41,228 nt of DNA from Gammaproteobacteria bacterium (lineage in GTDB: Bacteria > Pseudomonadota > Gammaproteobacteria > Steroidobacterales > Steroidobacteraceae): NCBI GenBank assembly GCA_005877965.1, contig VBNP01000025.1, positions 1 through 41,228 on the forward strand, written 5' to 3'. Shown here in pieces: positions 8,894 to 30,489 of the stretch. Below the pieces are notes generated by a model. The model ran no database searches. It was not told the DNA's origin and worked only from the letters and a program-made list of their open reading frames with translations. Within the stretch, counting starts at the first letter, position 1, and every line of letters begins with the position of its first letter. The position numbers were made by a program, and so were the translations under genes.

Positions 8894-9799
8894 TCAGTCT
8901 TCCTCGCAGGTGAAGTCGATGGTCGTCGCCGCGCCCTGCTCGGGCAGGCGCCCGAGCCCGATCATGCCCTGGCCCTTGATCTGCAGGCTGTCGCGACGCA
9001 CGAATGACTCCTCGCCGTCGGCGCTCTGCACGAACGTGCCGTTGGTGCTCTGATCGATCAATACGAACTTCTTGCGGCTGATCTCGATGCGCGCGTGCAG
9101 GCGCGAGATCAGGTTGCCCTTCACCACCACGTCGTTGTCCTCGGCCCGGCCGATGGTGATGCTCGCATGCCGCTCATCGACCAGCAGTTCGCGATCCTGA
9201 CACCGCAACCGCAGTCGCATGTGGTGCGCCGACCGCCGCTGATCGCTCGCAATCCCCGGCACCATGCTGGTCACGTCCTCGGTCTGCCAGAGCACCTCGT
9301 AGAGAGTGACTTCACTGCCCTGACCCTTGAGCGTCGCGACGTCGATCTGGCGGCAGGAGGCGCGCCACTCCGGTGACAGCTGGTCCACCGTCGCCGCGGT
9401 GGTCATGATCTGTCCGGCCTTGGCCTGACTGGTCATGCGGTTGGCGGTGTGCACGGCGGCGCCGAACACGTCTCGATTCTCGAGCATCACCGGACCGTAG
9501 TGGCAGCCGATGCGGATGGCGACCGGCTGTCCGTCGACCTTCAGTTGCGCGTGCGTGGAGATCTGCTGCTGCATCTGCGCGGCGGCGTTCAACGCGGCGT
9601 CGGCGCTCGGAAAGGTCGCCATGACCTCATCGCCCATGGTCTTGATGACCGTGCCCTGGCGCTGCTCGGTGGCAGTGCGCATCACGTCGATGCAGATCGC
9701 CACCATGTCGCGTGCGCGCAGATCGCCCATGGTGTCGTAGAGCCGGGTCGATCCGACGACGTCGGCAAACAGGATGGCGAGTTCAATATCCTTGCCCAT
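8894..9799 (-). CDS. class III adenylate/guanylate cyclase with C-terminal FHA domain
   Basis: The N-terminal cyclase homology domain reads LAILFADVVGSTRLYD...IKTMGDEVMATF. The C-terminal FHA domain reads ITIGRAEDNDVVV...ISRLHARI...LIDQSTNGTFV. I start it at the ATG at 9799 (MGKDIELAILF). Confidence 0.85.
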   Translation of the reverse strand: MGKDIELAILFADVVGSTRLYDTMGDLRARDMVAICIDVMRTATEQRQGTVIKTMGDEVMATFPSADAALNAAAQMQQQISTHAQLKVDGQPVAIRIGCHYGPVMLENRDVFGAAVHTANRMTSQAKAGQIMTTAATVDQLSPEWRASCRQIDVATLKGQGSEVTLYEVLWQTEDVTSMVPGIASDQRRSAHHMRLRLRCQDRELLVDERHASITIGRAEDNDVVVKGNLISRLHARIEISRKKFVLIDQSTNGTFVQSADGEESFVRRDSLQIKGQGMIGLGRLPEQGAATTIDFTCEED

Positions 9800-9836: not shown

Positions 9837-10937
9837 CTAGCAAACCTCCCGGGCCCGCGCGGCGGCAGGAATCGCCTGTCGCAGCAGCTCCGGACCCACT
9901 CCGGGGGCCCGCGCACCTTCACTCAAAGTGCGCCGGTAGTCGCGTGCCCCGGGCTCGCCGCTGTACAAGCCGAGCATGTGGCGCGTGATGGCGGCGAGGT
10001 GCCCGCCGGCGGCGAGCTCGCGCTCGGCGTAACGCTGCATGCGCGCGATGAGCGCCTCGCGGGTGGGTGCGACGCCGGCACCGGGACGCAGCGCGCACCG
10101 CAACTCGGCGAGCACGTACGGCCGGTGGTAGGCCTCGCGCCCGAGCATGACGCCGTCGCACCAGCTGAGCGCCTCGAGCACCGCGGGCGGCTCGCGCAGA
10201 CCGCCGTTGACCACGATCGGCAATGATGGGAATGCCGCCTTCAGCCGCCGCACGATCTCGTAGCGCAGTGGCGGGATCTCGCGGTTGTCCTTAGGTGACA
10301 GGCCACCCAACACCGCCTCGCGGGCATGCACGATGGCGGCCTGGCAGCCGCCATCGCGCACGCTGCTCACGAAGTGACACAGGGCCTCGAAATCGCTCTC
10401 ATCGAACTGCGCCACGCTGCCGTGCGCTCCCGGCTCCGCGCCATTCACCACGCCGATCCGCATTTTGACCGTGACCGGCACGCGCACCGCCGCGCGCATT
10501 GCGGCCACGCACTCGGCAACCCGGGCGGGCTCGTGCATCAGGCAGGCGCCGAAGGCGCCGCTGGCGACGCGGTCGCTCGGACAACCGCAGTTCAGGTTGA
10601 TCTCGTCGTAGCCAGCCTGCTCGCCGGCGCGTGCCGCCGCCGCGAGCTCGCGAGGCTCGCTGCCACCCAACTGCAGCGCGACCGGGTGCTCTTCGGGGTC
10701 GAACGCCAGCAATCGCGCGCCGTCACCGCGCACGATGGCCGCCGCGGTGATCATCTCGCTGTACAGCAGCACATCGGGCGAGAAGCCGCGCAGGAAGTAG
10801 CGGCAATGGCGGTCGGTCCAGTCCATCATGGGAGCGACTGAGATCCGCCGATCGAGCTTTTCAGCCTTTTGATCGGAGGAAATGCCTATTTTTGTAGGCG
10901 TTTCTGCGAGCGGCGTTTCTGGGGGATTCTGGGCCAT
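9837..10937 (-). CDS. dusA: tRNA dihydrouridine(20/20a) synthase DusA
   Basis: The 366-aa product has RISVAPMMDWTDRHCRYFLR near the N-terminus and a TIM-barrel Dus core (LNCGCPS, VTVKMRIG). The first ~35 codons (10836-10937) lie beyond the repeated core and may be supplied by an inserted element. Confidence 0.9.
   Translation of the reverse strand: MAQNPPETPLAETPTKIGISSDQKAEKLDRRISVAPMMDWTDRHCRYFLRGFSPDVLLYSEMITAAAIVRGDGARLLAFDPEEHPVALQLGGSEPRELAAAARAGEQAGYDEINLNCGCPSDRVASGAFGACLMHEPARVAECVAAMRAAVRVPVTVKMRIGVVNGAEPGAHGSVAQFDESDFEALCHFVSSVRDGGCQAAIVHAREAVLGGLSPKDNREIPPLRYEIVRRLKAAFPSLPIVVNGGLREPPAVLEALSWCDGVMLGREAYHRPYVLAELRCALRPGAGVAPTREALIARMQRYAERELAAGGHLAAITRHMLGLYSGEPGARDYRRTLSEGARAPGVGPELLRQAIPAAARAREVC
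10817..10835 (-). repeat. dusA 5' core, copy A (within the functional dusA; candidate att crossover region)
   Basis: TCCAGTCCATCATGGGAGC is identical to copy B at 18 of 19 positions. Beyond this core, similarity to B and C drops to roughly 60-70%, although the encoded peptide (RRI[SA]VAPMMDWT) is preserved. Confidence 0.6.
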
Positions 10938-11068
10938 TGGGGGGAGTTTATCGGTTGCCCAGGCGAGGTAAAGGCGACAGGAATCCCATGTCGCCTCCGA
11001 GCTCGCGATGAGCCCTGCCCCGATCGCGGTCTGCGAGTGCGGATGGCACGCTCCGCCGGCGCATCGAG

Positions 11069-11275
11069 CTACTTTCGGAGCTCGCGGTTCGCGTCGGCCC
11101 AGCCCATGGGCTGCTCGGCGCCGGATTCACAGCGCTGCTGCGTCTCGTTCAGAGCCGGTTCGTGCCAGGGCGGCGATTCGTAGCAGTCACCCTCGCGCGT
11201 AATGGAGTCCCACAGCTCCTCGAGCGTGCGCAGACTCTCTTCCCAGGACATCCGTTCGATCGCGGGTGTGGTCAT
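11069..11275 (-). CDS. putative addiction-module antitoxin component (TIGR02574-like), orphan
   Basis: The 68-aa product reads MSWEESLRTLEELWDSI...W...NRELRK. This matches the characteristic L..LaeeLWDSl ... W.ev pattern of that small antitoxin family. No intact RelE/ParE partner lies downstream. Confidence 0.65.
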   Translation of the reverse strand: MTTPAIERMSWEESLRTLEELWDSITREGDCYESPPWHEPALNETQQRCESGAEQPMGWADANRELRK

Positions 11276-11284
11276 ATCTCAAGC

Positions 11285-11602
11285 CTATTCGGCGGCCGTG
11301 CCGGGCACCGATGGCGGCCGCACCTCGATGATACTCATCATCCCGTGGTCCTCGTGCTCGGCCCCTCGGGCGTCATGAAGCAGAACATCATCTCCCAGCA
11401 GACACCGCGGATGCGGCCACGCTTGGCGCGGACCCGACTTGACGTTGAGCGCGGCGCTGCAGCTGGCTTGCGCGCCTGTTGCGGCGAGCGGCGGACCGCT
11501 GAATTGCCGTTCGAGCTGCACACAAACCTCATCGCCGACGCCCGTGCTGCTGCCCGTGGCGGGAATTCTGTAAGCGATCCCGAATTCCGAGCGTCGCGGC
11601 AC
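11285..11602 (-). CDS. hypothetical protein (weak call)
   Basis: This is a 105-aa ORF ending 10 nt before the antitoxin-like gene. By hand count, third-position GC is about 74% in this frame and about 72% in the antisense frame, so it does not discriminate. I recognise no family, and there is no signal peptide. Confidence 0.3.
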   Translation of the reverse strand: MPRRSEFGIAYRIPATGSSTGVGDEVCVQLERQFSGPPLAATGAQASCSAALNVKSGPRQAWPHPRCLLGDDVLLHDARGAEHEDHGMMSIIEVRPPSVPGTAAE

Positions 11603-11644
11603 ACCTATTGCTCCAGGGTGATCGTACGACTGCGGCGCGCTGGG

Positions 11645-12304
11645 TCAGAAGGCATATGCCGCACCCGCAAGAAAGTCGAACTGGAAGAACGAGGAACCCC
11701 GTACCCGCACCTGGCAGAGAGCACCGCTCCGATCCGAGCGGCAGAAGAACGCACTATCCGTATTAAGCGGCGTGAGAAGGCCGCGTCCTTCGAGGCGCAG
11801 CGAGAAATGGGGACTCACCGGCACGCGCAGGCCGAGTGCGAGAGATACCGAAAAACGCGTGTCTTCGTGACCGAGAGCAGCATCCGGGCTGAACCGCGTG
11901 ATCCCGAGACCGCCCGCGAGATAAGGCTTCACGCGCTGCGCCTCATCGAGCGCCACGGCGCCGCCGATGTGCAGATATTCCACGTCCATGCTGACGGGGG
12001 CGAGCGCATCTGCGCGCAGCACCGTGGACTGCCGACCGTAGAACAACTCGTATTGGCCGGATTCCTCGGCACGCGCATCGAGCGTGAGCGCGAAGGAGCC
12101 GTGGTCATCGAGCTCGACGTGCTGGCCGGCGTCGATCAGCTTGAAGCTGCCACCGACGCGGTAACCGATGAACGGAGTCACTTCAAACTGCTGCGCCTCG
12201 CGCGCGGGCCGCTCCGCCGTCGCGGGCGCGCTCGCGACCACGGCGCCGAGGAGCAACACGGTACGCAGTGCACCGCGCCAGCCTGATGTGCGCGCGCGCG
12301 TCAT
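11645..12304 (-). CDS. outer-membrane beta-barrel protein (OmpA-like beta-barrel/OmpW-like size)
   Basis: It has a signal peptide (MTRARTSGWRGALRTVLLLGAVVASAPATA), alternating beta-strand pattern and a C-terminal AAYAF ending in Phe. I start it at the ATG at 12304. Confidence 0.75.
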   Translation of the reverse strand: MTRARTSGWRGALRTVLLLGAVVASAPATAERPAREAQQFEVTPFIGYRVGGSFKLIDAGQHVELDDHGSFALTLDARAEESGQYELFYGRQSTVLRADALAPVSMDVEYLHIGGAVALDEAQRVKPYLAGGLGITRFSPDAALGHEDTRFSVSLALGLRVPVSPHFSLRLEGRGLLTPLNTDSAFFCRSDRSGALCQVRVRGSSFFQFDFLAGAAYAF

Positions 12305-12389
12305 CCCTCGTGAGCTCTCCTGGTCATGCGCTCTCACCCACACAACTGCCCTTGCGCCTCAGACTCGGCGGCTGCGGCTCGGCGCAAGG

Positions 12390-12857
12390 CTACTGCGGCT
12401 TGGCGACCATCAGCCAGAACACCAAGACCACGGCGGTGAACGCTGGCACGCCCAGCCAAAACCACAAGCGCGCGTACGCGCGATACCGTGAGCTGATCGA
12501 CGTACCCTCGCGTACCGACGTCCGGGCGAGGTCTCGCATCCGAAGCTGTAACCACACAACCGGAACCCAGCAAATGCCGGCGAGGCAGAACAACGCGATA
12601 GACCATGCGAGCCAGCCGTGGTTCAGTGGATAGCCAAGCAACCTCGCCAGCGCAAGGCCGGTCAGCGCCTGAACCACAATCGCGGGTAGTGTGAATAGCC
12701 AGTCAGCCAGCACGACTTTATCGGAGACCACCTGGATGGCCGCGGCATTTTCGGTGCGGTCAGTGATCCACTTGAAGAATGCGATTCCGAGGCCGGTCCC
12801 GAATAACACGGCTGCGCTGGTAACGTGGATCGCCTTGAGCAAGAGATAGGAGTTCAT
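12390..12857 (-). CDS. DUF2269 family integral membrane protein
   Basis: The 155-aa product has four hydrophobic helices. The N-terminus LLKAIHVTSAAVLFGTGLG is typical of DUF2269. Its start overlaps the stop of the upstream saccharopine-dehydrogenase-like gene by 4 nt. Confidence 0.8.
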   Translation of the reverse strand: MNSYLLLKAIHVTSAAVLFGTGLGIAFFKWITDRTENAAAIQVVSDKVVLADWLFTLPAIVVQALTGLALARLLGYPLNHGWLAWSIALFCLAGICWVPVVWLQLRMRDLARTSVREGTSISSRYRAYARLWFWLGVPAFTAVVLVFWLMVAKPQ

Positions 12858-13928
12858 TGCACCGTTTCGCTGATATCAAGCTCGCAAAGGGGTTCGAGAA
12901 ACTCTTCGACGGTCAATAAACCCATGCAGGGCATTGCCCCGGCCGGCAGTTGCGCGCCCGATGCGATCTTCCTCGCCAAGGCAATGGCGGCTCCGCACGG
13001 AATATGCGGCCCGTGATTTCGCTGGGCAATCAATGTCCACGTGATGTTCAGCGGCGCTTCGTCCGAACCTCGACCATCGAGTCTGACGAACATTCCTCCC
13101 TTGTCGCTGATGACCGGCTCCATCCATCGGCTGATGCGATTCAGCGGCATGGCAAAGGCACCCATGCCAGGCAAGATCCCGGCCTTCACAAGTCGAGCCA
13201 ACGTCCAAACCACCAGATGACCCACGTCGCTTGCGAACCCCGCTTGGAAGGAAACGGTTTTCACCGTGGGATATCGCAGTGGAAACAACTCGAGGTCGGG
13301 GATGTCGCAGCTTCCAAGCCACCGCTTTCCAAGCGGTTGCGGAAATCGATGCCTGCGCAAATCCAACCAGCCGTAGGCGTCCACCCATGCGCCGTTTTGC
13401 AAGGAGCGGAACGGCCTTCCGCCGTAACTGAAGATACCTTTGACCGTGGCCAATCCGGGGGCACGCGCCCCTGAACTTATACCGATATGAATCGAATCGA
13501 GCCGCCGAAACCTCCCCAGATACCGGTCTACCACCGCTGACGACAACGCCGGAACCGAACTCGCACCGCTAATCACACTCACACCGCTTGCCAAGGCCGA
13601 GGCATTGAGAGAGTCGATGCCGCCGACGAAGTGGCGACCGTCAGCCAAATCAACATAGTGACAACGCGCCTCGATCGCGGCGCGCGCAACCGAGTAATCC
13701 TGGCCTTGAAAGGGCCCTGCGGTGTGGATAAGGGTGTCGACCTGCATGCGAGCCAACGACCGCGCGAGATTGACGTCACGAGCGTCGATTGCGATCGCCT
13801 GTTCGGAGGGTAGACCCACTGCGTGGGCTGCGGCAGTAGCCCGACCTAAGGGACGGAGTCGACGCCAGGGCCGCGCCGATGCGCTGGCCGAAGAATCCGT
13901 AGCCTCCGAGCACCAGAACCGTCTGCAT
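12854..13928 (-). pseudogene. saccharopine dehydrogenase-like NAD(P)-binding protein, frameshifted near codon 25-30
   Basis: The Rossmann N-terminus MQTVLVLGGYGFFGQRIGAALAS starts at the ATG at 13928 in one frame. That frame stops after about 50 codons. The rest of the protein (...GRATAAAHAVGLPSEQAIAIDARD...HTAGPFQGQDY...) is in the frame offset by 1 nt. Total length is 1075 nt, which is not a multiple of 3. Confidence 0.65.
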
Positions 13929-14108
13929 TAGCGCCCGTCGCCGCCGCCAGGCCTTCGGGTGCGCTCCGTTTGGGATCCTTCGCCCGCTCGCGCGTTCTTG
14001 GAGGCGCCGGCTGAGTCGCAGTTCGACAATGGCAGGGGAACGTAGCAGGCCGTCCGACGCCCGAACCAGCGGTATCGGTTACCATGCTGGGCCAACAGCG
14101 CTTCATAC

Positions 14109-15572
14109 CTAGTGCGCGTGCATTCTGGCCATAAAGGCGAGCGCCTCATCCAGATCCCTCGGAGTGATCGCGTCGTCACGCCAGTATTCGCCGAAAAGAA
14201 AGGCAGCCGCAGTCTGGCCAGTCTGAGAACACACGGTGGCAAGTGCACGTGCCAGCGCACCGCTTTCGAGATGCTTTTCCATTATTGGCTGCGCTCTTGC
14301 CACCAACGCCTGGGCTGCAGCGATGTCACGCTGCGAGCTGTACAAATACGCAAGGCCCGACCAGGAGCGCAGATAGTCCGGATCAAGGCTTATGGCACGC
14401 TCGTACGCGTCCTTGGCACGCCGACTCAACGTGTCGGAGTCCACTCCAATCGACGCCTGCCTTGCCGACACTTCGCGCGCGAGTTGGGACAAAACCTCGC
14501 CGCTGTCGGCAAGTGCCGCTGCAGAAGGAGTGGATAATGCATCAAGCTTGTCCACGGCCCCTAGCGAAGCGCCGAAATTACCCTCCTGCAGATTCGCGCG
14601 TGCCAAGACGCGCAGCGATAGCTCACTGTTGGGATCTCCCTGGAGCGCCTCCGAGGCCAAGCGCAAGGCATTGGCCCGACGCTGCCACTGCAGGCTCAGG
14701 TCCGCCAGCCTGGCTTTGGTCTCGGCCTCAGGTAGCTTCCGCGGCTGTTCGTTATCCGCCGGTTCGCGCGGCACCTCCACGACGAAGACGTGCGCTGGCT
14801 CTTTCATCGCGCCCACTAACAGCTTATCCAGATCCTCATAACTGAACTTGAAACTTGCGGCAAACGCATCCGCTTCACTCTTGCCGTCCTGCATGAGACC
14901 CAGGTAACGCCCGAACTCATCCCGCAGCTTCCCTTCGACATACACCTCGCGCGCCAAGTACCAGCTCTCCGCTTCAAACAGGCTCTTGAAGCCAGATGAG
15001 CCGCGCAGTTGCGGATCGCTGCCTTGCACGCGCAACAAGATGCGCATCGGAATGAGTTTGGCCCCCAGCAGCGTCTGCGCAAACCCGGCAGATACGCCGC
15101 CGGTCTTTACCCGCCCCGACTCGAACTCGGTGTGGGCGAACAACTGCGGCACGCCAACCTGGAACCAATAGGGGGAGCGCGATGCCCGCCCATTCACCAA
15201 AAGGCTTCCGGTATAGCCGAACAGCGCACCCCAATACCGATTGTTCGAATCAGCCCCGGTATCGGTGATCACCGAGACCTCGTACCCGGAAAACTTAAAG
15301 GAGACCACGCCTACCTCGCCGAGCAGTTCCTTTTCCTGCTTGGGCGGCAGCTCGTAGATGTGAGTGGGAACGTGTTTTTCTGACAGCCGCAGAATGCGGG
15401 TGAGTGCCTTGTCGAAACGGGCTAGGTCGTGAGCTAGCGATACGGTATAGCCGCTGCCAGCGGCTGTAGTGACGTCGAAGTTTTTATACACGTAGCTCCA
15501 GTAGTCCTCGGCAATGGCAGCGTGGCTCACGGGGCAGAGCAACAAAGCGGCGTGGATGCTGGCACGTTGCAT
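14109..15572 (-). CDS. secreted hypothetical protein with C-terminal TPR-like repeats
   Basis: The 487-aa product has a signal peptide (MQRASIHAALLLCPVSHAAIA). The N-terminal ~270 aa match no family I recognise. The C-terminal half is helical and TPR-like (AKDAYERAISLDPDYLRSWSGLAYLY). Confidence 0.7.
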   Translation of the reverse strand: MQRASIHAALLLCPVSHAAIAEDYWSYVYKNFDVTTAAGSGYTVSLAHDLARFDKALTRILRLSEKHVPTHIYELPPKQEKELLGEVGVVSFKFSGYEVSVITDTGADSNNRYWGALFGYTGSLLVNGRASRSPYWFQVGVPQLFAHTEFESGRVKTGGVSAGFAQTLLGAKLIPMRILLRVQGSDPQLRGSSGFKSLFEAESWYLAREVYVEGKLRDEFGRYLGLMQDGKSEADAFAASFKFSYEDLDKLLVGAMKEPAHVFVVEVPREPADNEQPRKLPEAETKARLADLSLQWQRRANALRLASEALQGDPNSELSLRVLARANLQEGNFGASLGAVDKLDALSTPSAAALADSGEVLSQLAREVSARQASIGVDSDTLSRRAKDAYERAISLDPDYLRSWSGLAYLYSSQRDIAAAQALVARAQPIMEKHLESGALARALATVCSQTGQTAAAFLFGEYWRDDAITPRDLDEALAFMARMHAH

Positions 15573-15602
15573 GGTGTTGCCTCCCGCGGTTGTCGAAGCC
15601 GC

Positions 15603-16886
15603 TCAGAGTCCGACCCCGGGCACCGCATAGGCGCGAATACGACCGTATGCGCCTACCGCCTGGCGGATCTCCGGCCGGCTGCGCACGGCCTTTTGTCGCT
15701 CGCGCCAGCCGATCGCTCGTGCAGGACCCGGGTTGTCCGCGTAATCCTGCAATTCCACCAGCGCATCGGTTCGCAGGTCGGGATCGGAGAGCCGTGCAAC
15801 GAGGGTGGCGGCGGCCTCGTCTTCTCTTCCGGCAATGATCAAGGCGCTTTCACGGGTGCCCGGATAGTCCTGCGCGTGAGCGCGCAGGTCATCCAGCGCC
15901 GCCTCGAGGCCGGCCGCATCATCGAGTTCCGAGGCGACCACCACCCGCACCCAGGCAGCGACAGCGTGTCCATACACGCTCGCGTGTTCAAGAGGCGGAA
16001 TGGCGGCCAGCGCCTCCTGCGGACGATTCAGCGCCGCGAGGAAGCTCGCAAGATTGAGCGAATGGCTGACCAGATCCTCGCTTGATTCCTGGCAGGCGCG
16101 GCGCAGGAGCGCGACCGTCTCATCGTACCGTCCGAGTGCGCTCAAGGCACGTGCGCGCACGTTGAGAATCCACGGAAACTCCCGCTGCAGATCTTCGTAG
16201 GGAGAGGACTCAGGAGTTGCCGCCTGCTTACCCTGCAGCACCGGATCGGTCAGTTTCAGAACCTCGTCATAGCGATGCAGCAGCATGAACCCCCGGGCGA
16301 CCTGCACAACCCGACTGAGATCGCGCGGCCGCTGCCTGGCTGCAGCCTGGCGCTGTTCGAGTTCTTTCCGGGTGGCTTTGAGGATGTCTCGCTCCACAAA
16401 CTCTGATTTTGCGATGCGCTTGTAACGGTTGTCGGCCTGCAAACCAACCAAGGCGTAAGGATCGGTGATGTGTGCCGCAACCGCAAAGGCTTCCTGCTGC
16501 CGGTTGTGTTCCAGAAGATCCAGACTAAGCTGCAGCCACCAGCGGCTGGGTTCGCTGCCGTCACTGTGCAGCCACCGCAGCTCATAGAGCATTTGCAGCA
16601 GTTCAATGCGTGATCGCCCGAGTCGCGCCGGCTCGGACTCGCTGACCGCTTGTTCGATAAGGCGATGCGGCAGCGTGTTTAGTGCCCAGGTCCAGCGGCG
16701 GCCGATCGTCGTGACACAGAGGAGCTCATCGGCAGCATCGTGATGTTTCGCGGCCGCGGCTAACCGATCACTCCACTGTTTGTACTCGGCGGTGGCCTCC
16801 TCACTCGCACAGGCAATCGCAGAATATCCGTATACCAGCGTCGCCATTGTGAAGGCGGACGCGAGCACCGAGGCGCGCCGCCCCAC
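15603..16886 (-). CDS. secreted hypothetical helical-repeat protein
   Basis: The ORF is open to 17027. A GTG at 16886 gives a plausible signal peptide (GRRASVLASAFTMATLVYGYSAIACA/SEE). The rest is helical-repeat/TPR-like. It ends 30 nt upstream of the start of the next gene in the operon (14109-15572). Confidence 0.55.
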   Translation of the reverse strand: MGRRASVLASAFTMATLVYGYSAIACASEEATAEYKQWSDRLAAAAKHHDAADELLCVTTIGRRWTWALNTLPHRLIEQAVSESEPARLGRSRIELLQMLYELRWLHSDGSEPSRWWLQLSLDLLEHNRQQEAFAVAAHITDPYALVGLQADNRYKRIAKSEFVERDILKATRKELEQRQAAARQRPRDLSRVVQVARGFMLLHRYDEVLKLTDPVLQGKQAATPESSPYEDLQREFPWILNVRARALSALGRYDETVALLRRACQESSEDLVSHSLNLASFLAALNRPQEALAAIPPLEHASVYGHAVAAWVRVVVASELDDAAGLEAALDDLRAHAQDYPGTRESALIIAGREDEAAATLVARLSDPDLRTDALVELQDYADNPGPARAIGWRERQKAVRSRPEIRQAVGAYGRIRAYAVPGVGL

Positions 16887-17063
16887 CGAGGCCCAATGCG
16901 GTGCCTTGTTTGTTTGAGGTCTGTCGGACAGTTCATCCCAAAACCCCAATTCGCCTAGACAAGCAGTAACTATGCCCCTCCCGGGCAAGCTGCCGAAATC
17001 TGAGGTGACGTAAAGGTGACAAGCCATTCTTTGGGCCTACAAGTGATTGATTCGACAACCTCA

Positions 17064-17159
17064 TTAGACTTCGTTGGTCCAGTCCATCATCGGAGCCACG
17101 GCGATGCGGCGATCTAACTTCGACGCGCCGACGGAGTTACTATTCAGACGCGTCGTCAT
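17064..17159 (-). pseudogene. displaced dusA 5' fragment with its own ATG (31 codons; contains repeat copy B at 17078-17126)
   Basis: It translates as MTTRLNSNSVGASKLDRRIAVAPMMDWTNEV-stop. The ATG at 17159 lies inside the last codons of the nucleotidyltransferase gene. The DusA sequence ends right after the MMDWT core. Confidence 0.55.
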
Positions 17160-17766
17160 CCAGACCCTTGCCGGAGTCACGCTCTAACTCGCTGCGCTTC
17201 GACGAGTCATGCTTCTCAGCTGCCCGCTCCTCGAGACCTCGCTCGGCGTGAAAGTCGCGGGTGATCTGGTCGCGCATTCGACTGCGCAATTGCTGGTCAA
17301 TTTGGGTCTGGTCCAGCAATGTAAACAATCGCTCCTCGGAAACGATTCCGCGACGAGCAAGTTCACGTGTGAATATCAGGTCCTTCTCGCGCGCCGCGGC
17401 ATACTTTGCGATAGCGAGGTCATGAGGATCGAGGCACAGCCCTCTCACGCCCTCGGTCTCGCCGGGAGGCAAGTTCACCAAACGCTCTTTCCAGCCCTTC
17501 GGAAGGGTCGCAGTGTTCAAGTCAACCGGGTCAGCGTAGTAGCCGAGACTTTCGTGAAACGGTGAATCGACCCCTATTACGTTGAGCCATTCGGTTCGAT
17601 CTGCATTTTTCGACGCGACCAGATCCACCTCAAACGACGTGAGGATCTCGTCGGCAATATCCGGGTACTTTCCGTGGAGAGACTGGCTCCCAATAATGAT
17701 GAACTGCTTTTCGCCAGTGATGCGGCCAGCAGCGCGCAGCACATGATCAACCTGCTGCTTCTTCAT
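17140..17766 (-). CDS. Pol-beta-fold nucleotidyltransferase-like protein (DUF6036-like), putative TA toxin component
   Basis: The 208-aa product has FIIIGSQSLHG...EVDLV (an hG[SG] ... [DE]xD nucleotidyltransferase signature), GYYADPV..TATLPKGW and a C-terminal AKYAAAREKD helix. Its start overlaps the upstream AbrB-type gene by 20 nt. Confidence 0.7.
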   Translation of the reverse strand: MKKQQVDHVLRAAGRITGEKQFIIIGSQSLHGKYPDIADEILTSFEVDLVASKNADRTEWLNVIGVDSPFHESLGYYADPVDLNTATLPKGWKERLVNLPPGETEGVRGLCLDPHDLAIAKYAAAREKDLIFTRELARRGIVSEERLFTLLDQTQIDQQLRSRMRDQITRDFHAERGLEERAAEKHDSSKRSELERDSGKGLDDDASE

Positions 17767-18187
17767 TTAATTTTCTGACTTGCTCTTTCGGAAGTAATCC
17801 GACGAACGGCGCCGATTGTCGAAGTCGGACCGCGTTCTCGTCACGGCCGAGCATTGCGGCGAAGAGTTCTCCATCGTCTAGCCCCTCCGCAATGTCTTGC
17901 CATTCTTTGTAAGCCGCACCCCAAACACCCTGTCGTCTCCAACGATGGAGGTTCGCGAGAATCTGCGCGCGTATTTCGCGGGGCGTGAACCGGCGTACGA
18001 CCTCAAGAGCCATGGTTCGCCTGAGCTCGTCCAATTCATGGTGCATGAAGCCCCCCCGCCCAGCGGGACGAAGGCCGTGTTCCGTCAGGTGCAGAGCGTC
18101 GCCCTCGCCCACGCCCCACGCGTCGAGCGTTGCCTTCGGAAGTAAGACCCCGAGGGAATTTCCGATACGTCGTACAGCAACTTTCAT
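17747..18187 (-). CDS. AbrB/MazE/SpoVT-family DNA-binding protein with ~100-aa C-terminal extension, putative antitoxin
   Basis: MKVAVRRIGNSLGVLLPKATLDAWGVGEGDALHL is a typical swapped-hairpin AbrB/MazE N-domain. I start it at the ATG at 18187. The longer track ORF (to 18343) only adds the dusA remnant MAPMMYWTD. Confidence 0.8.
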   Translation of the reverse strand: MKVAVRRIGNSLGVLLPKATLDAWGVGEGDALHLTEHGLRPAGRGGFMHHELDELRRTMALEVVRRFTPREIRAQILANLHRWRRQGVWGAAYKEWQDIAEGLDDGELFAAMLGRDENAVRLRQSAPFVGLLPKEQVRKLNEEAAG

Positions 18188-18193
18188 AGTGCA

Positions 18194-18222
18194 ATTATAA
18201 CATGTTATTACATCTACGGCAA
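18194..18222 (-). promoter_or_regulatory. sigma70-like promoter of the AbrB-type gene, predicted leaderless; overlaps the 12-bp palindrome ATAACATGTTAT (18197-18208)
   Basis: The minus strand reads TTGCCG-17 nt-TATAAT-tgcact-ATG. With the -10 ending 6 nt before the ATG, the transcript would start at or next to the start codon. A perfect palindrome spans the spacer and the -10. Confidence 0.5.
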
Positions 18223-18321
18223 AATGTCCGGCAGATTGAATACCGGGGCGACGTAAAGGAGACACGGGCGTTTCGCGCCTGTCCAAGCACATGATTCCAC
18301 GCGGGAAATCAACTCCGTCCG

Positions 18322-18370
18322 TCCAGTACATCATCGGAGCCACGGCGATGCGGCGATCTAACTTCGACGC
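18322..18370 (-). repeat. dusA 5' core, copy C (distal remnant, no start codon)
   Basis: It is identical to copy B (17078-17126) at 48 of 49 nt, with the single mismatch at 17084 C versus 18328 A. It encodes ...NSVEASKLDRRIAVAPMMYWTD and then diverges from DusA. Weaker similarity (~60%) extends about 35 nt to the left and 14 nt to the right. Confidence 0.85.
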
Positions 18371-18401
18371 CTCGACAGAATTGCGGGACTCCCCTGCTCG
18401 C

Positions 18402-19760
18402 CTACCTCGAGAACCCTACAACGAGCACGATGGCAATCCCAAGCGGACAAACGTAGCGCAGCGCGAACAACAGCAGCCGTCGCGACCGGAGAGATAGACC
18501 ACTCAGTTCGCCTTCCGGAATCCGTTTCCCCATCCGCCAGCCGATGAACACGCTGACCAGAAGCGCTGAGATCGGCATGAGCAGGTTGGCAGCCAGAAAA
18601 TCGACCACGGCAAAGAAATTCAATCCTGCCAGGCGGGGAATCGACCGCAGCGGATGCCAGTCCTTCAAGTGGCCGAACGAAAGCACCGAGCCCTGACCGA
18701 TCAGCCAGCCGGCGCCCAGGCACAGGCACGCCGCGGTCGCGCGCCTCAGGCCGGCGCGCTCCGACAGCCACGCAATCCAGGGTTCCATGAGGCCAATCGA
18801 AGGAGTGAATGCGGCCAGCGCGAGAAGCGCGAAGAACAGAGTGCCGATGAGGCGGCCGCCGGGCATTTCGGCAAACGCTATCGGCAGAACCTGAAAGACG
18901 AGTTCCGGACCCTCGGCGGGGTTCAGACCGTAGTGGAACATCAGCGGGAAGATCACCACCGTCGCGAGGAGCGATACTACGAAGATCGAACCGACAACGG
19001 CCGTTACGCTGCGCTGCAGAGACTCCCCGACCGGCATGTACGCCCCGTAGGCGATGATGATGCCGGCGCTCACGCCCATCGCAAACAGCGCCTGGCCGAC
19101 GGCGCCGAGAACAACCACCGATGTGAGCCGGCTCAGGTCCGGCGCAAATGCGAAGCGCAGTCCGCGCGCCACGTCTCCGGTAGCCAGCGAGTATGCGACG
19201 AGCACCAGGAGAATCGCGAGCAGCCCGGGCGCACGCCAGCGGTTGGCCCATTCGACCCCGCGATTCAGTTGCCGGGCCGAAACGACAGCAACCAGCGCGA
19301 AAAATCCCAGCTGCCACAGCGATACAGCGCGTGAATCGGCAACAAACGCGTGGAACTTCGCGACCACCGCGGGCGGTCCACGAGCGTAGTTGCCGGAAAG
19401 AAAGTACCAGGTGTAGGCGAGCACCCAGCCGGCGATCATCGTGTAGTACGAGATGATCAGGAACCCGGCGATAGAGCCGGTCCACCCGACGACGTCCCAC
19501 AGCGCTGAGTCCCCAAAGCGTCCGGCTATGACGCCCGCCGCCCGTGGCGGGGAGTGCCTCGACCATCGGCCGAGCACTGCCTCGGCGATGAAGACCGGAG
19601 CACCGAAGGCCAGACAAGCGAGGACGAATACCGCGATGAATGCGAATCCGCCCCCGGCGGCTGCCAGATACGGAAAGCGCCAGATGCTGCCCATGCCGAC
19701 GGCGGCTCCGACGGCGCCGAGCAGGAATCCCAGCCGCGAGACCCACCGCTGGCTGTTCAC
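18402..19760 (-). CDS. sodium-dependent transporter, neurotransmitter:sodium symporter (NSS/SNF) family
   Basis: The 452-aa product has the N-terminal motif RLGFLLGAVGAAVGMGSIWRFPY and is predicted to be a multi-pass membrane protein (about 11-12 transmembrane helices by eye). Confidence 0.9.
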   Translation of the reverse strand: MNSQRWVSRLGFLLGAVGAAVGMGSIWRFPYLAAAGGGFAFIAVFVLACLAFGAPVFIAEAVLGRWSRHSPPRAAGVIAGRFGDSALWDVVGWTGSIAGFLIISYYTMIAGWVLAYTWYFLSGNYARGPPAVVAKFHAFVADSRAVSLWQLGFFALVAVVSARQLNRGVEWANRWRAPGLLAILLVLVAYSLATGDVARGLRFAFAPDLSRLTSVVVLGAVGQALFAMGVSAGIIIAYGAYMPVGESLQRSVTAVVGSIFVVSLLATVVIFPLMFHYGLNPAEGPELVFQVLPIAFAEMPGGRLIGTLFFALLALAAFTPSIGLMEPWIAWLSERAGLRRATAACLCLGAGWLIGQGSVLSFGHLKDWHPLRSIPRLAGLNFFAVVDFLAANLLMPISALLVSVFIGWRMGKRIPEGELSGLSLRSRRLLLFALRYVCPLGIAIVLVVGFSR

Positions 19761-25827: not shown

Positions 25828-26012
25828 ACGGCCCCCTGAGCTACTCGCTTCCCTCAGGCCCAGTGTGTACCACATACGGTACATCCCTCAAATGGGACCC
25901 GAAGCCCCAGCTGCAGCAGCTTGAGCCGTACCTCTGGGTCGCCATGGGACTGGCCTCCGGCCGCCTGGTGCTGCAAAGCGACGCAACGCTCGTCCGTTCA
26001 CCGCACGCGCCT

Positions 26013-26044
26013 TTGTCGTCTGATAGCTTTCTCGCTATCATAGC
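26013..26044 (+). promoter_or_regulatory. sigma70-like promoter of the XRE gene, predicted leaderless, with overlapping palindromic operator candidates
   Basis: The sequence reads TTGTCG (26013-18)-17 nt-TATCAT (26036-41)-agcggg-GTG (26048). TGATAGC-N6-GCTATCA (26021-26040) is a perfect inverted repeat. GCTAT-C-ATAGC (26034-26044) overlaps it. Confidence 0.5.
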
Positions 26045-26047
26045 GGG

Positions 26048-26386
26048 GTGGCTCAGACAACTGCATCACGACTGCTGATCTTGGCCCGGCGCAGTGCCGG
26101 GCTCACGCAACGCGATCTGGCGCGCCGCGCGCGCACCTCACAGTCCGTCATTGCCCGTATCGAGAGTGGCGCTGCCAGCCCAAGCTGGAAAACTCTGCAG
26201 CGTCTGGTGAACCGTGCAGGTTTTGACTTGCAGGGGGTACTCAGTCCGAGGCCTCGCAACCGCTCGCATATGCTCGCTGACGTCCCCCGTATATTGCGAT
26301 TGACGCCGGAACAGCGGCTGCTCGAACTGCATCACGCCGCGCGCTTCTTTGCGGCCGCGGCGCGTATCGATGACGGGTCCGTTTGA
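26048..26386 (+). CDS. XRE-family helix-turn-helix DNA-binding protein, putative antitoxin
   Basis: The 112-aa product contains LARRSAGLTQRDLARRARTSQSVIARIESG, a classic Cro/C1-type HTH. Its 3' end overlaps the next gene by 17 nt. Confidence 0.8.
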   Translation: MAQTTASRLLILARRSAGLTQRDLARRARTSQSVIARIESGAASPSWKTLQRLVNRAGFDLQGVLSPRPRNRSHMLADVPRILRLTPEQRLLELHHAARFFAAAARIDDGSV

Positions 26387-26858
26387 CCCGGAGCGAATAC
26401 TTCGCGCCCTGTCGAAACGGGGAGTGCTTTACATCCTGGTCGGCGCCACCGCTGCGCGCCTGCAGGGTTTCCCGCGCCTCACGGCCGATGCCGACATTGC
26501 GCCAGCCACCGATACTGACAATCTCAAACGCCTGTCGAGGGCGCTGCGCGATCTGCATGCGCGCGTTTACACGGAATCCGTGCCCGAAGGGCTACCCTTC
26601 AGCTTTGATGCCGAGACCCTTTCACGCGCCAATGTCTGGAACCTGACGACCGACGCCGGCCGGCTGGACCTCATCTTCAAGCCGAGCGGCACCCAGGGCT
26701 ACGACGATCTGGCCAAGTCGGCTGTAACCTTTAAGGCCTTTGGTATCGAACTGCGCGGCGCGAGCCTCAAGGACATCCTGCGCTCAAAGCTCGCATCGAA
26801 TCGCCCACAGGACCAGCAGGATGTGATCATCCTCACCGAGATGCTGAAACGACGTTAG
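26370..26858 (+). CDS. small Pol-beta-fold nucleotidyltransferase-like protein, putative TA partner
   Basis: It has YILVGATAARLQGFPRLTADADI (hG[GA]..A....G..R.T.D.D signature) and a C-terminal ILRSKLASNRPQDQQD helix. I prefer the ATG at 26370 over the TTG at 26349. Confidence 0.7.
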   Translation: MTGPFDPERILRALSKRGVLYILVGATAARLQGFPRLTADADIAPATDTDNLKRLSRALRDLHARVYTESVPEGLPFSFDAETLSRANVWNLTTDAGRLDLIFKPSGTQGYDDLAKSAVTFKAFGIELRGASLKDILRSKLASNRPQDQQDVIILTEMLKRR

Positions 26859-26923
26859 GAGGCATCCTGCAGCCCGTTCAGCGTCTCCTCGACGCTCGGG
26901 CGGACGACCTCGCCGCTACCTGA

Positions 26924-27589
26924 TCATGCCTGAAGCCCGAGCTCATCGAGCGAGCGCAGCAGTTCGGCCGGATCGCGATAGACGCGAAATGCTCCGGCAC
27001 TGAGGAGTTCAGTCTCGCCGTAGCCGCCACTCAGCAGCCCGACGCTCAGAATCCCAGCGCGGCGCGCCGCAAGCTGATCCCAGACGGCATCACCGATGAC
27101 ATAGCATTCGCTCGGCGCAACCCCGAGTCGCTGCCCGCAGGCGATGAACAGGTCCGGCTCAGGTTTGGCGCGCGCGACGTCGCCTCGTTCGACGACCACG
27201 ACGTCGTTGTCGACGCCGAGTACCTCGAGCGAGCGATCGATCTCGGGGCGCCGGCCGGAGGTGGCGATACCGTACGCGATCTTCCGCCGGCGCAGATCTC
27301 TCAGCAGCTCCACGGCGCCCGGAAGCGGCCGCCGCTCCGGGAGAAATTCGCGGAATAGTTCCCCGTGGCGCCTCTGCAGGTCTTCCGCTGCCGAGCCGTC
27401 GATGTCGTGCCCGAGCTCACGCGCCGCCGCACGCGCGAACAGGCCGCCGCTCATACCGATGCGGCGGTGAATACGCCAACCGTCGATGGCAAGACCCGAC
27501 TCTGCAAACGCGCGTTGCCAGGCAAACACATGCGCGTAAACGGTGTCCACGAGCGTGCCATCGAGATCAAAGATGAGCCCGCGCATCAC
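26924..27589 (-). CDS. HAD-family hydrolase (phosphoglycolate phosphatase-like)
   Basis: It has motif I (LIFDLDGTLVDT), motif II (ATSG) and motif IV (GDAVWD). Confidence 0.85.
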   Translation of the reverse strand: MMRGLIFDLDGTLVDTVYAHVFAWQRAFAESGLAIDGWRIHRRIGMSGGLFARAAARELGHDIDGSAAEDLQRRHGELFREFLPERRPLPGAVELLRDLRRRKIAYGIATSGRRPEIDRSLEVLGVDNDVVVVERGDVARAKPEPDLFIACGQRLGVAPSECYVIGDAVWDQLAARRAGILSVGLLSGGYGETELLSAGAFRVYRDPAELLRSLDELGLQA

Positions 27590-27765
27590 GACATCGTGCT
27601 CCCTCTCCGGCTAGCGAGCGTTTGCGGCTCTCGCATTGTCGCAGCTTTCGACGCCGGCTCACAGCCGTGCCATTTGACGTGGCTTTCGTCGGCGGCGGGT
27701 CAATGTTAGCGTGCACACGATGGCCACGACTGTTTCGCTGAAGACTTGCAGCGGGAGGGGATGAT

Positions 27766-28398
27766 ATGGCTGGCGGCGCTTACACGCTTTACGGCAGGGC
27801 GAACGCCGGGTCGCTGGCCGTGCAGATTGTGCTCGAGGAGATCGGCGCGCCCTATGAGCTGCGGTGGGTCGGCAAGACTGCGGCTGAGCTTGAGACCTTG
27901 CGCCGCATCAATCCCGCCGGAAAGGTGCCGGCGCTCGTGCTGCCGGATGGCACGGCGGTGTTCGAGTCCGCCGCAATCCTCATTCACCTGACCGACGCGC
28001 ATCCGGCGGCGGATCTGGCGCCGGTCGCCGGCAGCACGGCGCACGCCCGCTTTCTGCAATGGATGTTATTTCTGTCGTCGAATGTCTACGAGGCGGCGCT
28101 GCGAATCTCCTACCCGGAGCGCTACTCGACGGCCGGGACAGCCGCGGCCGACCAGATCAAGGCGCAAGCCTTGCAGGACTACGCCCGCCAACTCGAACTC
28201 ATCCACGGCGCGCTCTCGCCCTATGTACTGGGCGAGAAGCTGTCCGCTGCGGACCCGTACCTGCACATGCTCGCCGGTTGGTATCCCGATGATGCCGCCG
28301 CGCTGGGCTCCCGACTGCCGAAGCTTGCTCAGCACGCTGCACTGCTGCGCCGCAGGCCGGCGACCCGCAAGGCCGAACAGGATCACGCCGGCACCTAG
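27766..28398 (+). CDS. glutathione S-transferase
   Basis: The 210-aa product has an N-terminal thioredoxin-like GST fold (NPAGKVPALVLPDGTAVFESAAILIHL) and a helical C-terminal domain. Confidence 0.9.
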   Translation: MAGGAYTLYGRANAGSLAVQIVLEEIGAPYELRWVGKTAAELETLRRINPAGKVPALVLPDGTAVFESAAILIHLTDAHPAADLAPVAGSTAHARFLQWMLFLSSNVYEAALRISYPERYSTAGTAAADQIKAQALQDYARQLELIHGALSPYVLGEKLSAADPYLHMLAGWYPDDAAALGSRLPKLAQHAALLRRRPATRKAEQDHAGT

Positions 28399-28490
28399 GC
28401 GACCTCATCGCCACCGCATCAGGCGACGCGCGCCCAAAACCCGGCGCTTGCCGGCGCGCACACTCCAGATGCCACGGGAGGATCACGATC

Positions 28491-29180
28491 ATGAGTCTCG
28501 CTCCTTTGCACGGCATTCGGGCCTGCGTGTTCGACGCCTACGGCACGTTGTTCGACGTCGCGGCCGCGGCGCGGGCCTGCGGTCATGAGCTGGGCGAGAA
28601 GTCGAGTGCATTGAGTTCACTTTGGCGTGAAAAGCAGCTCCAATATACGTGGCTGCGGGCGCTGCAAGGCAGGCACGCGGACTTCTGGCAAGTGACCGGC
28701 GAGGCCCTCGACTTTGCGCTCGACACGCTGCAGATCTCCCGCACCGGGTTGCGGGAGCGGCTGCTGAACCTTTACCTCACGCTCGGCGCCTTTCCGGAGG
28801 TACCTGACACGCTGGCGCGGCTGAGGCGGGCCGGGATGAGGACTGCAATACTCTCCAACGGCTCCCCGCACATGCTGAAAGCCGCCGTGGAGGGCGCCCA
28901 AATCACTCACTTGCTGGACGCTGTGCTCTCGGTTGAGGAAGTCGGGATTTACAAGCCGCACCCGAGGGTTTATCAGCTTGCGGTAGAGCGCCTGGCGCTC
29001 GAGGCGGGCGCGATCGCGTTCCAGTCGTCCAATGCCTGGGACGCCTGGGCCGCATCCGCCTTCGGCATGCGGGTGGTGTGGTGCAACCGCTACGATCAGC
29101 GTCCCGAAAGGCTCCCGGGCAAGCCTGATCGGGAAATCAGGTCGCTGGCGGAACTGCCGGCCCTGTTAGGTCTGAACTGA
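28491..29180 (+). CDS. haloacid dehalogenase type II (L-2-haloacid dehalogenase)
   Basis: It contains CVFDAYGTLFDV (nucleophilic Asp), WREKQLQYTW, ILSNGS and FQSSNAWD, all typical of HAD type II dehalogenases. Confidence 0.9.
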   Translation: MSLAPLHGIRACVFDAYGTLFDVAAAARACGHELGEKSSALSSLWREKQLQYTWLRALQGRHADFWQVTGEALDFALDTLQISRTGLRERLLNLYLTLGAFPEVPDTLARLRRAGMRTAILSNGSPHMLKAAVEGAQITHLLDAVLSVEEVGIYKPHPRVYQLAVERLALEAGAIAFQSSNAWDAWAASAFGMRVVWCNRYDQRPERLPGKPDREIRSLAELPALLGLN

Positions 29181-29208
29181 CACCCTCGGAGTCCGGGATC
29201 CGGGGCAT

Positions 29209-29892
29209 TCACACCCCCGCGGCCGCGCCTTCGTGAACGGCCTGCACGATCCTGGCGGCAATCTCAGCCGGCGTTGCGGTTGCGGGGATCGCCACGCGAA
29301 TCCGCTGCTGCGGATCAACGAGCAAGACGAACGCGCTATGTTCCACCGCATAAGATCCCGATTTCGCATCGAGCGTCCGCCGGTCGAAGAAGATCCGGTA
29401 CTGTTGGGCGACGCGCTCCACGGCGCGCGGCGAACCGCTCAGGGCAATGATGCGGACATCGAAGGCGTTTACATAGGCTGACAGCGCCCGCGGTGTATCG
29501 CGTTGCGGGTCGACCGAAACGAATACCGGAAGGATCCGAGCCGCGTCGGGCCCGAGCTGCTCGAGAGCCTGATGAATTCCCATCAGGGTGAGCGGACACA
29601 CATTCGGGCAGGTCGTGAAGCCGAATGTCACGAGGCGATAGCGCGTGGCGAGAGCGTGCTCGTCAACGGCCACGCCCCGTGTGTCGCGGAGCCCGGCGAA
29701 CGAGGCATCAATCTGCTCGCCGGCACGTGGCGCCGACCCGACCGCACCGCCCGACAGGGTCTGAATCAGCATCCACACCGCCATCGCGGCGCTCACCGTG
29801 AGACTCACCAGGAGCGCAACGCCCATACGGCGAGTCCGGCGGATCACCGCACGCGCCCCGCTGAGTCCTTTGACGTGTGGCCTTTTTCCCAT
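29209..29892 (-). CDS. SCO1/SenC-family copper chaperone / thiol-disulfide protein
   Basis: It has an N-terminal membrane anchor and the CxxxC motif FTTCPNVCP, followed by a conserved His region (VEHSAFVLLVD). Confidence 0.9.
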   Translation of the reverse strand: MGKRPHVKGLSGARAVIRRTRRMGVALLVSLTVSAAMAVWMLIQTLSGGAVGSAPRAGEQIDASFAGLRDTRGVAVDEHALATRYRLVTFGFTTCPNVCPLTLMGIHQALEQLGPDAARILPVFVSVDPQRDTPRALSAYVNAFDVRIIALSGSPRAVERVAQQYRIFFDRRTLDAKSGSYAVEHSAFVLLVDPQQRIRVAIPATATPAEIAARIVQAVHEGAAAGV

Positions 29893-29922
29893 GATGCCTC
29901 GAGCTGCCCGGTCACCCGGGTG

Positions 29923-30486: not shown

Positions 30487-30489
30487 GGC

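Follow-up and report, generated by a model that had tools for sequence, protein, structure and literature searches.

A probable fossil tandem array of integrase-less units at the dusA attachment site of a soil gammaproteobacterium

The stretch of DNA analyzed here, i.e., 41,228 nucleotides (41 kb) of contig VBNP01000025.1 from a gammaproteobacterium of the Steroidobacteraceae, is referred to as the window. It harbors the gene dusA and three copies of a short segment from the 5' coding end of that gene (the core), denoted A (inside dusA itself), B and C. Because dusA is read on the minus strand, the three copies are direct repeats on the dusA coding strand, where the order is a transporter gene (NSS), C, a small element, B, a 6.26-kb unit and A within dusA. 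Comparison with relative loci (L001-L170) indicates that this arrangement is very probably the fossil of a tandem array, built where dusA-specific tyrosine integrases (DAI, also named IntdusA) have their attachment site. The small element, which extends from C to B, is a member of a previously undescribed family of two-gene cassettes located at dusA in many soil bacteria.

Islands that target dusA insert into its 5' end and are flanked by semi-conserved direct repeats of ~21 bp; the integrase gene adjoins dusA with its 5' end, the island supplies a dusA 5' end, and a PrtN homologue is common, the PrtN/RdfN type being found in ~64% (Farrugia 2015, PMC4482086). All 94 islands of that study carry an integrase, and the smallest is 4,758 bp (PMC4482086). 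In Vibrio, the PrtN homologue is a recombination directionality factor (RDF) needed for excision (Durand 2021, PMC8409611), and a tandem of two dusA elements, IEVpaBan1a/b, in which both elements have integrases, has been described (PMC8409611).

An earlier reading of the window from its sequence alone (the sequence-only reading) had proposed three copies of the dusA core on one strand, and repeat searches place these copies on the minus strand at 10812-10859 (A), 17068-17138 (B) and 18312-18391 (C). As a three-copy family (10812-10859, 17073-17120 and 18317-18364) the repeats are 79-81% identical to A, and the B/C pair aligns over 71 nt (17068-17138 and 18312-18382) at 89% identity. Near-identity of B and C had been claimed for 48 of 49 nt, in agreement with the single difference observed over the 38 nt of the probe GATCGCCGCATCGCCGTGGCTCCGATGATGGACTGGAC. 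The core CCNATGATGGAYTGGAC, which corresponds in position to the dusA codons for ...VAPMMDWT, has three matches in the window, where 0.05 are expected. A second motif, GTCnCCTTTACnTCnCC, was overlooked in the earlier note; it is also found three times (10962-10978, 17004-17020 and 18247-18263), where 0.02 matches are expected. Relaxed searches of the window recovered no additional degenerate copies of the core or of the arm motifs. Copy B lies, as had been described, in a mini open reading frame (ORF) of 31 codons that reads exactly MTTRLNSNSVGASKLDRRIAVAPMMDWTNEV followed by a stop (17064-17159), and copy C indeed lacks a start, there being no ATG, GTG or TTG from the stop of the NSS gene to the core.

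The motif GTCnCCTTTACnTCnCC is located 73 nt after the core start on both B and C, i.e., at the fixed offset of the family, and the same distal arm follows the distal core of the L002 element as well as orphan cores of L001 and L010. Of 53 distinct orphan cores, 35 are followed by the distal-arm motif (mode +73), compared with none of the 91 cores that run into an intact dusA. In elements that carry an integrase, the half-sites co-vary in both arms (CGTAGC in L017, GTCGCAC in L059 and GTCTCC in L087), and the arm motifs may be element-specific protein-binding sites of the arm type. The identity of the junctions is seen directly: owing to the conserved distal arm at this fixed distance, B and C are judged to be genuine junctions of the dusA-element family. 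Copy C can be described as an attP-like junction made up of a truncated proximal arm of the small-element type, the core and the small element's own distal arm. Its left edge is an illegitimate join to the 3' flank of the NSS gene, 10 nt after the NSS stop. The possibility that copy C is a native dusA 5' end was also considered, but it is instead a truncated copy of the small element's replacement end. A scan of viral contigs for the attP-like pattern of core plus arm found none.

The identity of copy A becomes apparent from relatives that harbor an integrase. The comparison includes 80 loci from a DusA scan of species-representative genomes. The clade is composed of uncultured soil Gammaproteobacteria, Steroidobacteraceae-like, across which the 3' side of dusA (FHA-cyclase, pckG and helicase genes) is syntenic but the 5' side is not. 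A PF00589 tyrosine integrase is encoded divergently from dusA in L002, L017, L059 and L087, and a member of the same family occupies the same position in L026; the gap between the integrase and dusA start codons is ~70 nt in L002 and L087. The L087 element (integrase at 19004-20161 of L087) also encodes PrtN (18829-19119; PF11112, 7.6e-15), NikA, a MobA relaxase and an RHS toxin, and PrtN/RdfN homologues are found in L002 and L059 as well. Copy A of the window and the 140 nt upstream of it are colinear, column by column, with the arm that separates the integrase from dusA in L087 and L002; the alignment runs from the ATG of the integrase up to the core. Here, the shared order is the integrase ATG, a palindrome, a TTTAC motif, GCAACCGATAAACTCCCC, the replacement start codon and the core. 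In six loci the palindrome precedes the core by 163-164 nt, and its stem occurs in four different versions, each self-complementary. In addition, the type A N-terminal end of DusA is common to the integrase-adjacent dusA genes of L002, L087 and L015. These alignments indicate that the first ~26 codons of dusA and the arm upstream of them are element-borne. A reversed assignment, in which the type A 5' end would be native and the B type foreign, was rejected because type A is joined to integrase starts in L002, L087, L015 and L170. Upstream of dusA, a strict scan for sigma-70 promoters was negative.

The proposal that the three copies are att junctions of elements that bring a replacement dusA 5' end is thereby supported: the arm of A is homologous to the integrase-proximal arm, B and C have the integrase-distal arm, and the mini-ORF of B is found as the in-frame start of an intact dusA in L085, L098, L101, L103 and L105. 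Beyond the integrase ATG, the homology of the copy A arm to the integrase is lost. No integrase was found in the window (tblastn with three integrases, best E = 7.7), nor was a PrtN homologue, even at E <= 10. According to Pfam, the large ORFs of the window hold no recombinase domain, and the remaining large ORFs are ordinary metabolic or transport genes. The absence of a recombinase from both intervals between the cores, which the sequence-only reading had remarked upon, is a direct observation (Pfam, all interval genes, with leftover gaps of at most 214 nt each); searches of all genes of both intervals with Pfam, NCBIfam and PADLOC found no integrase, relaxase or RDF. Because the arm homology ends at the ATG and the window holds neither an integrase nor PrtN, copy A is interpreted as an attR-type junction that has lost its integrase from the start codon onwards. 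In relatives, integrase stumps form a graded series, i.e., L084 (residues 4-130), L164 (1-104), L170 (3-99) and L014 (1-79), which indicates that integrase decay is common in the clade.

The small element measures 1,244 bp from core to core and is composed of an AbrB/MazE-like gene and a DUF6036 gene, with no integrase. Among 80 loci recovered from metagenomes with the DUF6036 protein as query, the DUF6036 gene was always paired with an AbrB-like neighbor: both are present in 75 loci and the other five contigs end at the DUF6036 gene. A dusA core lies beside the pair in 22 of 31 loci that encode the long form of the protein (at least 201 aa) and in 2 of 49 that encode the short form (172-199 aa). 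The pair is bounded by cores 1,244-1,399 bp apart in the window, L081-L085, L087, L088, L101, L118 and L164-L170, and identical ends of the small element at the dusA core are seen in >10 soil metagenome contigs. When the left junctions are aligned, an identity of ~95% begins exactly at the core, with no similarity upstream, where the 5' stubs are unrelated. The proximal (right) arm comprises ~130 nt (17094-17230 in the window), holds two GCGTGACTC repeats, ends with MTTRLSSNSVGASKLDRR and is conserved even across mosaic DUF6036 3' ends; the element's own dusA start reads MTTRLNSNSVGASKLDRR.... Since an intact dusA begins in frame with this arm in other loci, the mini-ORF of copy B is an orphaned replacement start. 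The last ~30 residues of the long-form DUF6036 protein (17140-17230 and homologues) occur mainly in dusA-linked copies. Their codons overlap the conserved proximal arm, which thus seems to be translated as part of the gene.

The recurrence of the small element, and a phylogeny that is incongruent with that of its hosts, are likewise observed directly. Between the window and L085, the small element is 97% identical over 1,140 nt, compared with 83.8% over 8,962 nt of flanking host DNA. At third codon positions the identity in this pair is 0.94-0.97 in the cassette and 0.65-0.82 in host genes, and in hosts that are equally divergent (L101 and L113) the cassette lineages are at 0.38-0.55; out-of-frame gene extractions (values near 0.4) were ignored in the codon analysis. 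These values point to a horizontal history of the cassette. No integrase-bearing ancestor of the small cassette was found, and the cassette behaves as a stable unit.

The 146-aa protein has matches to PF04014 (2.3e-5) and TIGR02609 (below cutoff), and its 208-aa partner to PF19502. The AbrB-like gene is preceded by a promoter-like, near-consensus sequence, TTGCCG-17-TATAAT with TG (18194-18222, minus strand). Its -10 box is located ~6 nt from the ATG and is overlapped by a perfect palindrome, ATAACATGTTAT, a layout which suggests that the AbrB-like transcript is autoregulated and possibly leaderless. The small, co-oriented and overlapping genes, with the AbrB/MazE domain first and an operator-like palindrome, have the layout of a type II/IV toxin-antitoxin system, and the operon is probably a toxin-antitoxin-like addiction pair. 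The DUF6036 protein is named by no PADLOC or NCBIfam family. A role of the DUF6036 or the AbrB protein as the recombinase was considered and set aside, as neither matches a defense or recombinase family. Most short-form homologues (172-192 aa) are found in contexts other than dusA, which argues that the pair is a general module, not a recombinase.

Relatives harbor larger arrays of such units. In L169/L170 (L169 1-4313 and L170 are JGI Ga0137395_10015383 and Ga0179596_10004012) the order within 3.8 kb is core, MazE-PIN, core, AbrB-DUF6036, core, PIN-RHH and core-dusA; the cassettes measure 1.32, 1.37 and 1.04 kb, respectively, dusA is intact, and only an integrase stump is found upstream of the array. 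The largest array seen, L092 2958-17730, has six dusA cores that delimit units of 5.9, 2.0, 1.1, 5.0 and 0.8 kb. In L010 (4799-10097) a 5.3-kb unit without integrase resides between two cores and encodes AbiEi, a Fic/SoFic-like protein and a TOTE-type primase-helicase. The order of the cassettes varies: PIN-RHH precedes the small unit in L087 and follows it in L169, and MazE-PIN precedes it in L083 and L094 and partly follows it in L100. L087 also has the small unit in tandem with an intact integrase-bearing element.

The sequence-only reading had counted two tandem elements. Here, C-B stands as a discrete unit, but B-A (6.26 kb) is a mosaic rather than one clean element; it could plausibly be the remnant of an integrative mobilizable element that has decayed. 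The claim of a lower G+C content inside the array holds, with values of 0.56-0.63 over 12.3-18.6 kb compared with 0.68-0.72 in pckG. A block composed of an outer-membrane protein (OMP) gene, an oxidase-gene remnant and an antitoxin gene adjoins the proximal arm in the window, L001, L084 and L090, and the latter three have it upstream of the small unit. The OMP gene of L087 comes immediately after the NSS gene; in the window, 6.08 kb (18391 down to 12309) separate the two. In relatives the OMP gene is found outside the 6.26-kb unit, i.e., beside NSS in L087 and beside the far flank in L001. The oxidase gene seems to be full-length in L001 and L003, as judged from the C-terminal translation and a spacing of 2-3 kb. 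The junction in L001 is illegitimate as well, without microhomology. A single order of events for the window, L001/L084/L090, L003 and L087 was sought and abandoned, as insertion and deletion scenarios are equally parsimonious. Both site-specific and illegitimate recombination have acted at the locus.

An empty site in which dusA abuts the NSS gene had been predicted, but none was found among the 170 loci; NSS abuts OMP in L087. The nearest single-core alleles are L003, L005, L006, L008 and L009. In the closest of these, L003 (10020-10100), dusA starts with GTG and has kept a cassette-type 5' end (MANELCNNSVGESKLDRRISV...), and the cassette is found 3.4 kb upstream without cores; L003 is accordingly a fossil, not a virgin site. 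The exact DusA protein of the window has no match in public assemblies. The array of the window is fixed in the population and probably immobile unless an integrase acts in trans. The window itself thus holds a relic array that has become fixed and whose dusA, rebuilt by an element, is functional.

The small element is a self-contained, integrase-less cassette composed of the distal arm (GTCnCCTTTACnTCnCC), the two-gene operon and a proximal arm with a dusA start. The 6.26-kb unit has kept its distal arm and its integrase-proximal arm, and in the latter lie the palindrome, what may be a promoter block and the new N-terminus of DusA. Genes for the integrase, the RDF and mobilization would have been lost, and the interior is mosaic. 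dusA would be expressed from the element-borne 5' end. Neither unit would be self-mobile, such that excision or reshuffling would require IntdusA and RdfN supplied in trans from a co-resident element. The earlier suggestion that the units are cis-mobilizable-element (CIME)-like remnants or are served in trans is plausible and fits the comparative data, which indicate that the small cassette family may have used such action in trans repeatedly in this lineage; mobilization of the cassettes in trans is plausible. A broader scheme is offered tentatively, as one that is possible but falls short of being probable: dusA integrases would operate an integron-like capture, in which recombinase-less cassettes are inserted, stacked and reshuffled in trans, C-B with its attP-like junction being one of them. 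Under this tentative scheme, each cassette would have a distal arm and its own dusA start and would carry mostly toxin-antitoxin or defense genes (AbrB-DUF6036, MazE-PIN and PIN-RHH).

Several explanations that do not involve movement in trans were considered. The repeats could in principle result from an assembly collapse or a chimeric join of metagenomic reads at repeated sequence, given that the source organism is uncultured and that repeats of 50-70 nt can mislead short-read assemblers. However, the identical junction and gene order recur at 97.7-99.5% identity in at least eight independent assemblies, i.e., the window-type arrangement is found in L081/L161, L082, L089, L162, L163 and L165-L167, which originate from different projects (NCBI WNGJ and WNGO, ENA ERZ27253164 and several JGI samples). 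The layout is therefore not an assembly artefact, an explanation to which we assign practically no weight and which the sequence-only reading had named as an alternative. Hardly more probable is an origin by general recombination or slippage, with no integrase involved, in which the 5' region of dusA would have undergone segmental duplication or gene conversion. The near-identity of B and C over 49 nt would fit such a process, as would L001, where an orphan B-type copy holds a local 19-nt tandem duplication (GTCGAGGTTAGATCGCCGC, 9690-9740). Yet the known att core is where the repeats stop, the family distal arm that is common to integrase-bearing elements comes after each orphan copy at a fixed offset, copy A has the integrase-proximal arm, and the arms are absent from the 91 intact dusA contexts; the explanation is thus contradicted by the arm homologies.

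A more serious, albeit unlikely, alternative is that the units entered with integrases and that deletions left only addiction genes and arms, with no mobilization in trans at any time, the cassette recurring through vertical descent and through homologous exchange anchored by the cores and arms. Integrase stumps are frequent (L084, L164, L170, L014 and, on the distal side, L002), the window-type population is monomorphic, the array edge and L001 have illegitimate junctions, and the small element's proximal arm is devoid of the integrase-side palindrome, all of which such decay would accommodate. It is difficult to reconcile with cassette ends that fall precisely on the core and are the same in >10 contexts whose upstream stubs are unrelated, with a synonymous-site identity that is far above that of host genes in L085 and far below it in equally divergent hosts, with a permuted cassette order between contigs, and with the finding that no cassette copy contains an integrase fragment. 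A number of observations also weigh against reading the locus as a site-specific array at a dusA attachment site with units movable in trans. The core of copy C is substituted (GAC>TAC) and has no start codon, so that excision between C and A would leave dusA startless. The proximal arm of the small element is without the palindrome and motif seen beside integrases, which leaves the element only a putative recombination substrate. An intact integrase in the same array is found in one contig only (L087), and the OMP, oxidase-remnant and antitoxin genes are placed otherwise relative to the small unit in L001, L084, L090 and L087. On its left side the array ends in a junction of the illegitimate type (18391/18392 to 12308, with AGGG microhomology), which indicates that rearrangement that is not site-specific also shaped the locus. 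Finally, the at least eight near-identical window-type contigs showed neither an excised circle nor an empty site nor any polymorphism for the two units; none of these contigs lacks either unit, and the population gives no sign of current mobility.

The array shares with the known dusA islands the insertion at the 5' end of dusA, the direct core repeats and the element-borne 5' end, and the relatives L087, L002 and L059 share the integrase-dusA layout and a PrtN/RdfN homologue. In contrast to those islands, both units of the window are devoid of an integrase and an RDF, with only the position of the integrase ATG left, and one of them is a recurring 1.24-kb two-gene cassette. A CIME is an element that has kept its att sites and lost the genes for integration and transfer (Guedon et al. 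2017, PMC5704250); CIMEs have been described as one-off decay products that reside, for the most part, at the 3' ends of genes for tRNAs or proteins in Firmicutes. The units of the window resemble them in that attL/attR-type sites (C/B and B/A) are kept without integration or transfer genes, in tandem accretion at one target gene and in the expected need of a helper integrase. They differ in that the small unit has conserved ends and its own gene start, has spread between genomes, forms multi-cassette arrays and resides in Gammaproteobacteria.

The pdif modules and the IMEX elements are also recombinase-less, often carry toxin-antitoxin or resistance genes, have recombination sites at their borders and are moved by the host XerCD at dif-like sites. 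In the dusA arrays, by contrast, the presumed helper is an element-encoded dusA-specific integrase, not the housekeeping Xer. Integron cassettes are small recombinase-less units, mostly of one or two genes, arranged head to tail beside a divergent tyrosine recombinase gene, frequently with toxin-antitoxin genes and in variable order. The likeness of the dusA arrays to these is functional only: there is no attC hairpin and no IntI here, the site is a coding segment of dusA, each unit rebuilds the gene start, and lambda-like arm motifs flank the core. The neighboring integrases score 25-30 bits against the IntI-related model NF040815, for which the cutoff is 220. Large chromosomal integrons are the subject of PMC11023631.

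No literature reports of integrase-less dusA units, of DUF6036 or of dusA cassette arrays were found. The dusA islands have been catalogued through the integrase, and units without one are thus invisible to that approach. The present data add that the dusA site also collects recombinase-less units, down to two-gene cassettes of 1.0-1.4 kb that rebuild the gene start, in arrays of at least three small cassettes and with six cores at most. If the cassettes are moved in trans, they would constitute a second, independent case in which a tyrosine recombinase captures and shuffles cassettes outside integrons, a route by which addiction and defense modules could spread among uncultured soil Gammaproteobacteria, and a simple substrate for defining the arm-site requirements of IntdusA and RdfN.

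The features of the array and its neighbors are collected in Table 1.

Table 1. Features of the dusA array in the window, from dusA to the NSS gene (P, integrase-proximal; P', integrase-distal)
Feature	Position	Strand	Basis
dusA, intact, 366 aa	9837..10937	-	Pfam Dus 7e-74
Core copy A, read as attR-type; core CCCATGATGGACTGGAC at 10816-10832	10812..10859	-	repeat and core searches
P arm of putative decayed dusA-specific element; contains replacement 5' end, GATAAACT and motif D3a (10962-10978)	10860..11010	-	colinear with L087 and L002 integrase-dusA intergenic region
P-arm palindrome AGGCGACA-N9-TGTCGCCT	10972-10996		compensating stems in 6 loci
Orphan integrase ATG	11008-11010	+	P-arm alignment
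Orphan antitoxin-like gene, 68 aa, PF09720	11069..11275	-	Pfam
Multicopper-oxidase gene, 3'-end remnant	11299..11563	-	blastn to L001, L003
Outer-membrane beta-barrel protein (OMP) gene	11645..12343	-	Pfam
Lower-GC cargo block	12390..17027	-	G+C profile, Pfam
DUF2269 gene	12390-12857	-	Pfam
Saccharopine-dehydrogenase-like gene, frameshifted	12854-13930	-	Pfam
TPR protein genes	14109-15572 and 15603-17027	-	Pfam
P' arm of 6.26-kb unit; motif D3b GTCACCTTTACGTCACC at 17004-17020	17004..17076	-	
Core copy B, hybrid junction, in small element's orphaned replacement 5' end; core 17077-17093	17064..17159	-	
DUF6036 nucleotidyltransferase-fold protein, 208 aa, long form	17140..17766	-	PF19502 1.9e-9
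AbrB/MazE-type DNA-binding protein, 146 aa; 20-nt overlap with DUF6036 gene	17747..18187	-	
P' arm of small element; motif D3c GTCTCCTTTACGTCGCC at 18247-18263	18247..18320	-	
Core copy C; core 18321-18337, G>T giving Y for D; left edge 18391/18392	18312..18391	-	
NSS (SNF-family) transporter gene, left neighbor of array	18402..19760	-	Pfam

Further rearrangements are seen next to the array. The segment 18392-26011 of the window (NSS, cyclase, TonB receptor, class IV aminotransferase and SDR genes) is absent at this place in the closest metagenome-assembled genomes, and in L001, L003, L084 and L090 the far flank (window 26012-30682) abuts the OMP gene. Beside the deleted integrase, 193 nt (11035-11227), which make up most of the PF09720 gene, are missing in the sister contigs L081 and L089, where 11224 is joined to 11043 and 11228 to 11034, respectively; L162 appears to share this deletion, as judged from its gene layout and from a unit that is shorter by 164 nt. 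The window has the saccharopine-dehydrogenase-like gene in two parts, a 321-aa ORF and a 50-aa N-terminal piece, a split that represents a frameshift, a pseudogene or a sequencing error; the near-identical L161-L166 have one intact 366-aa gene.

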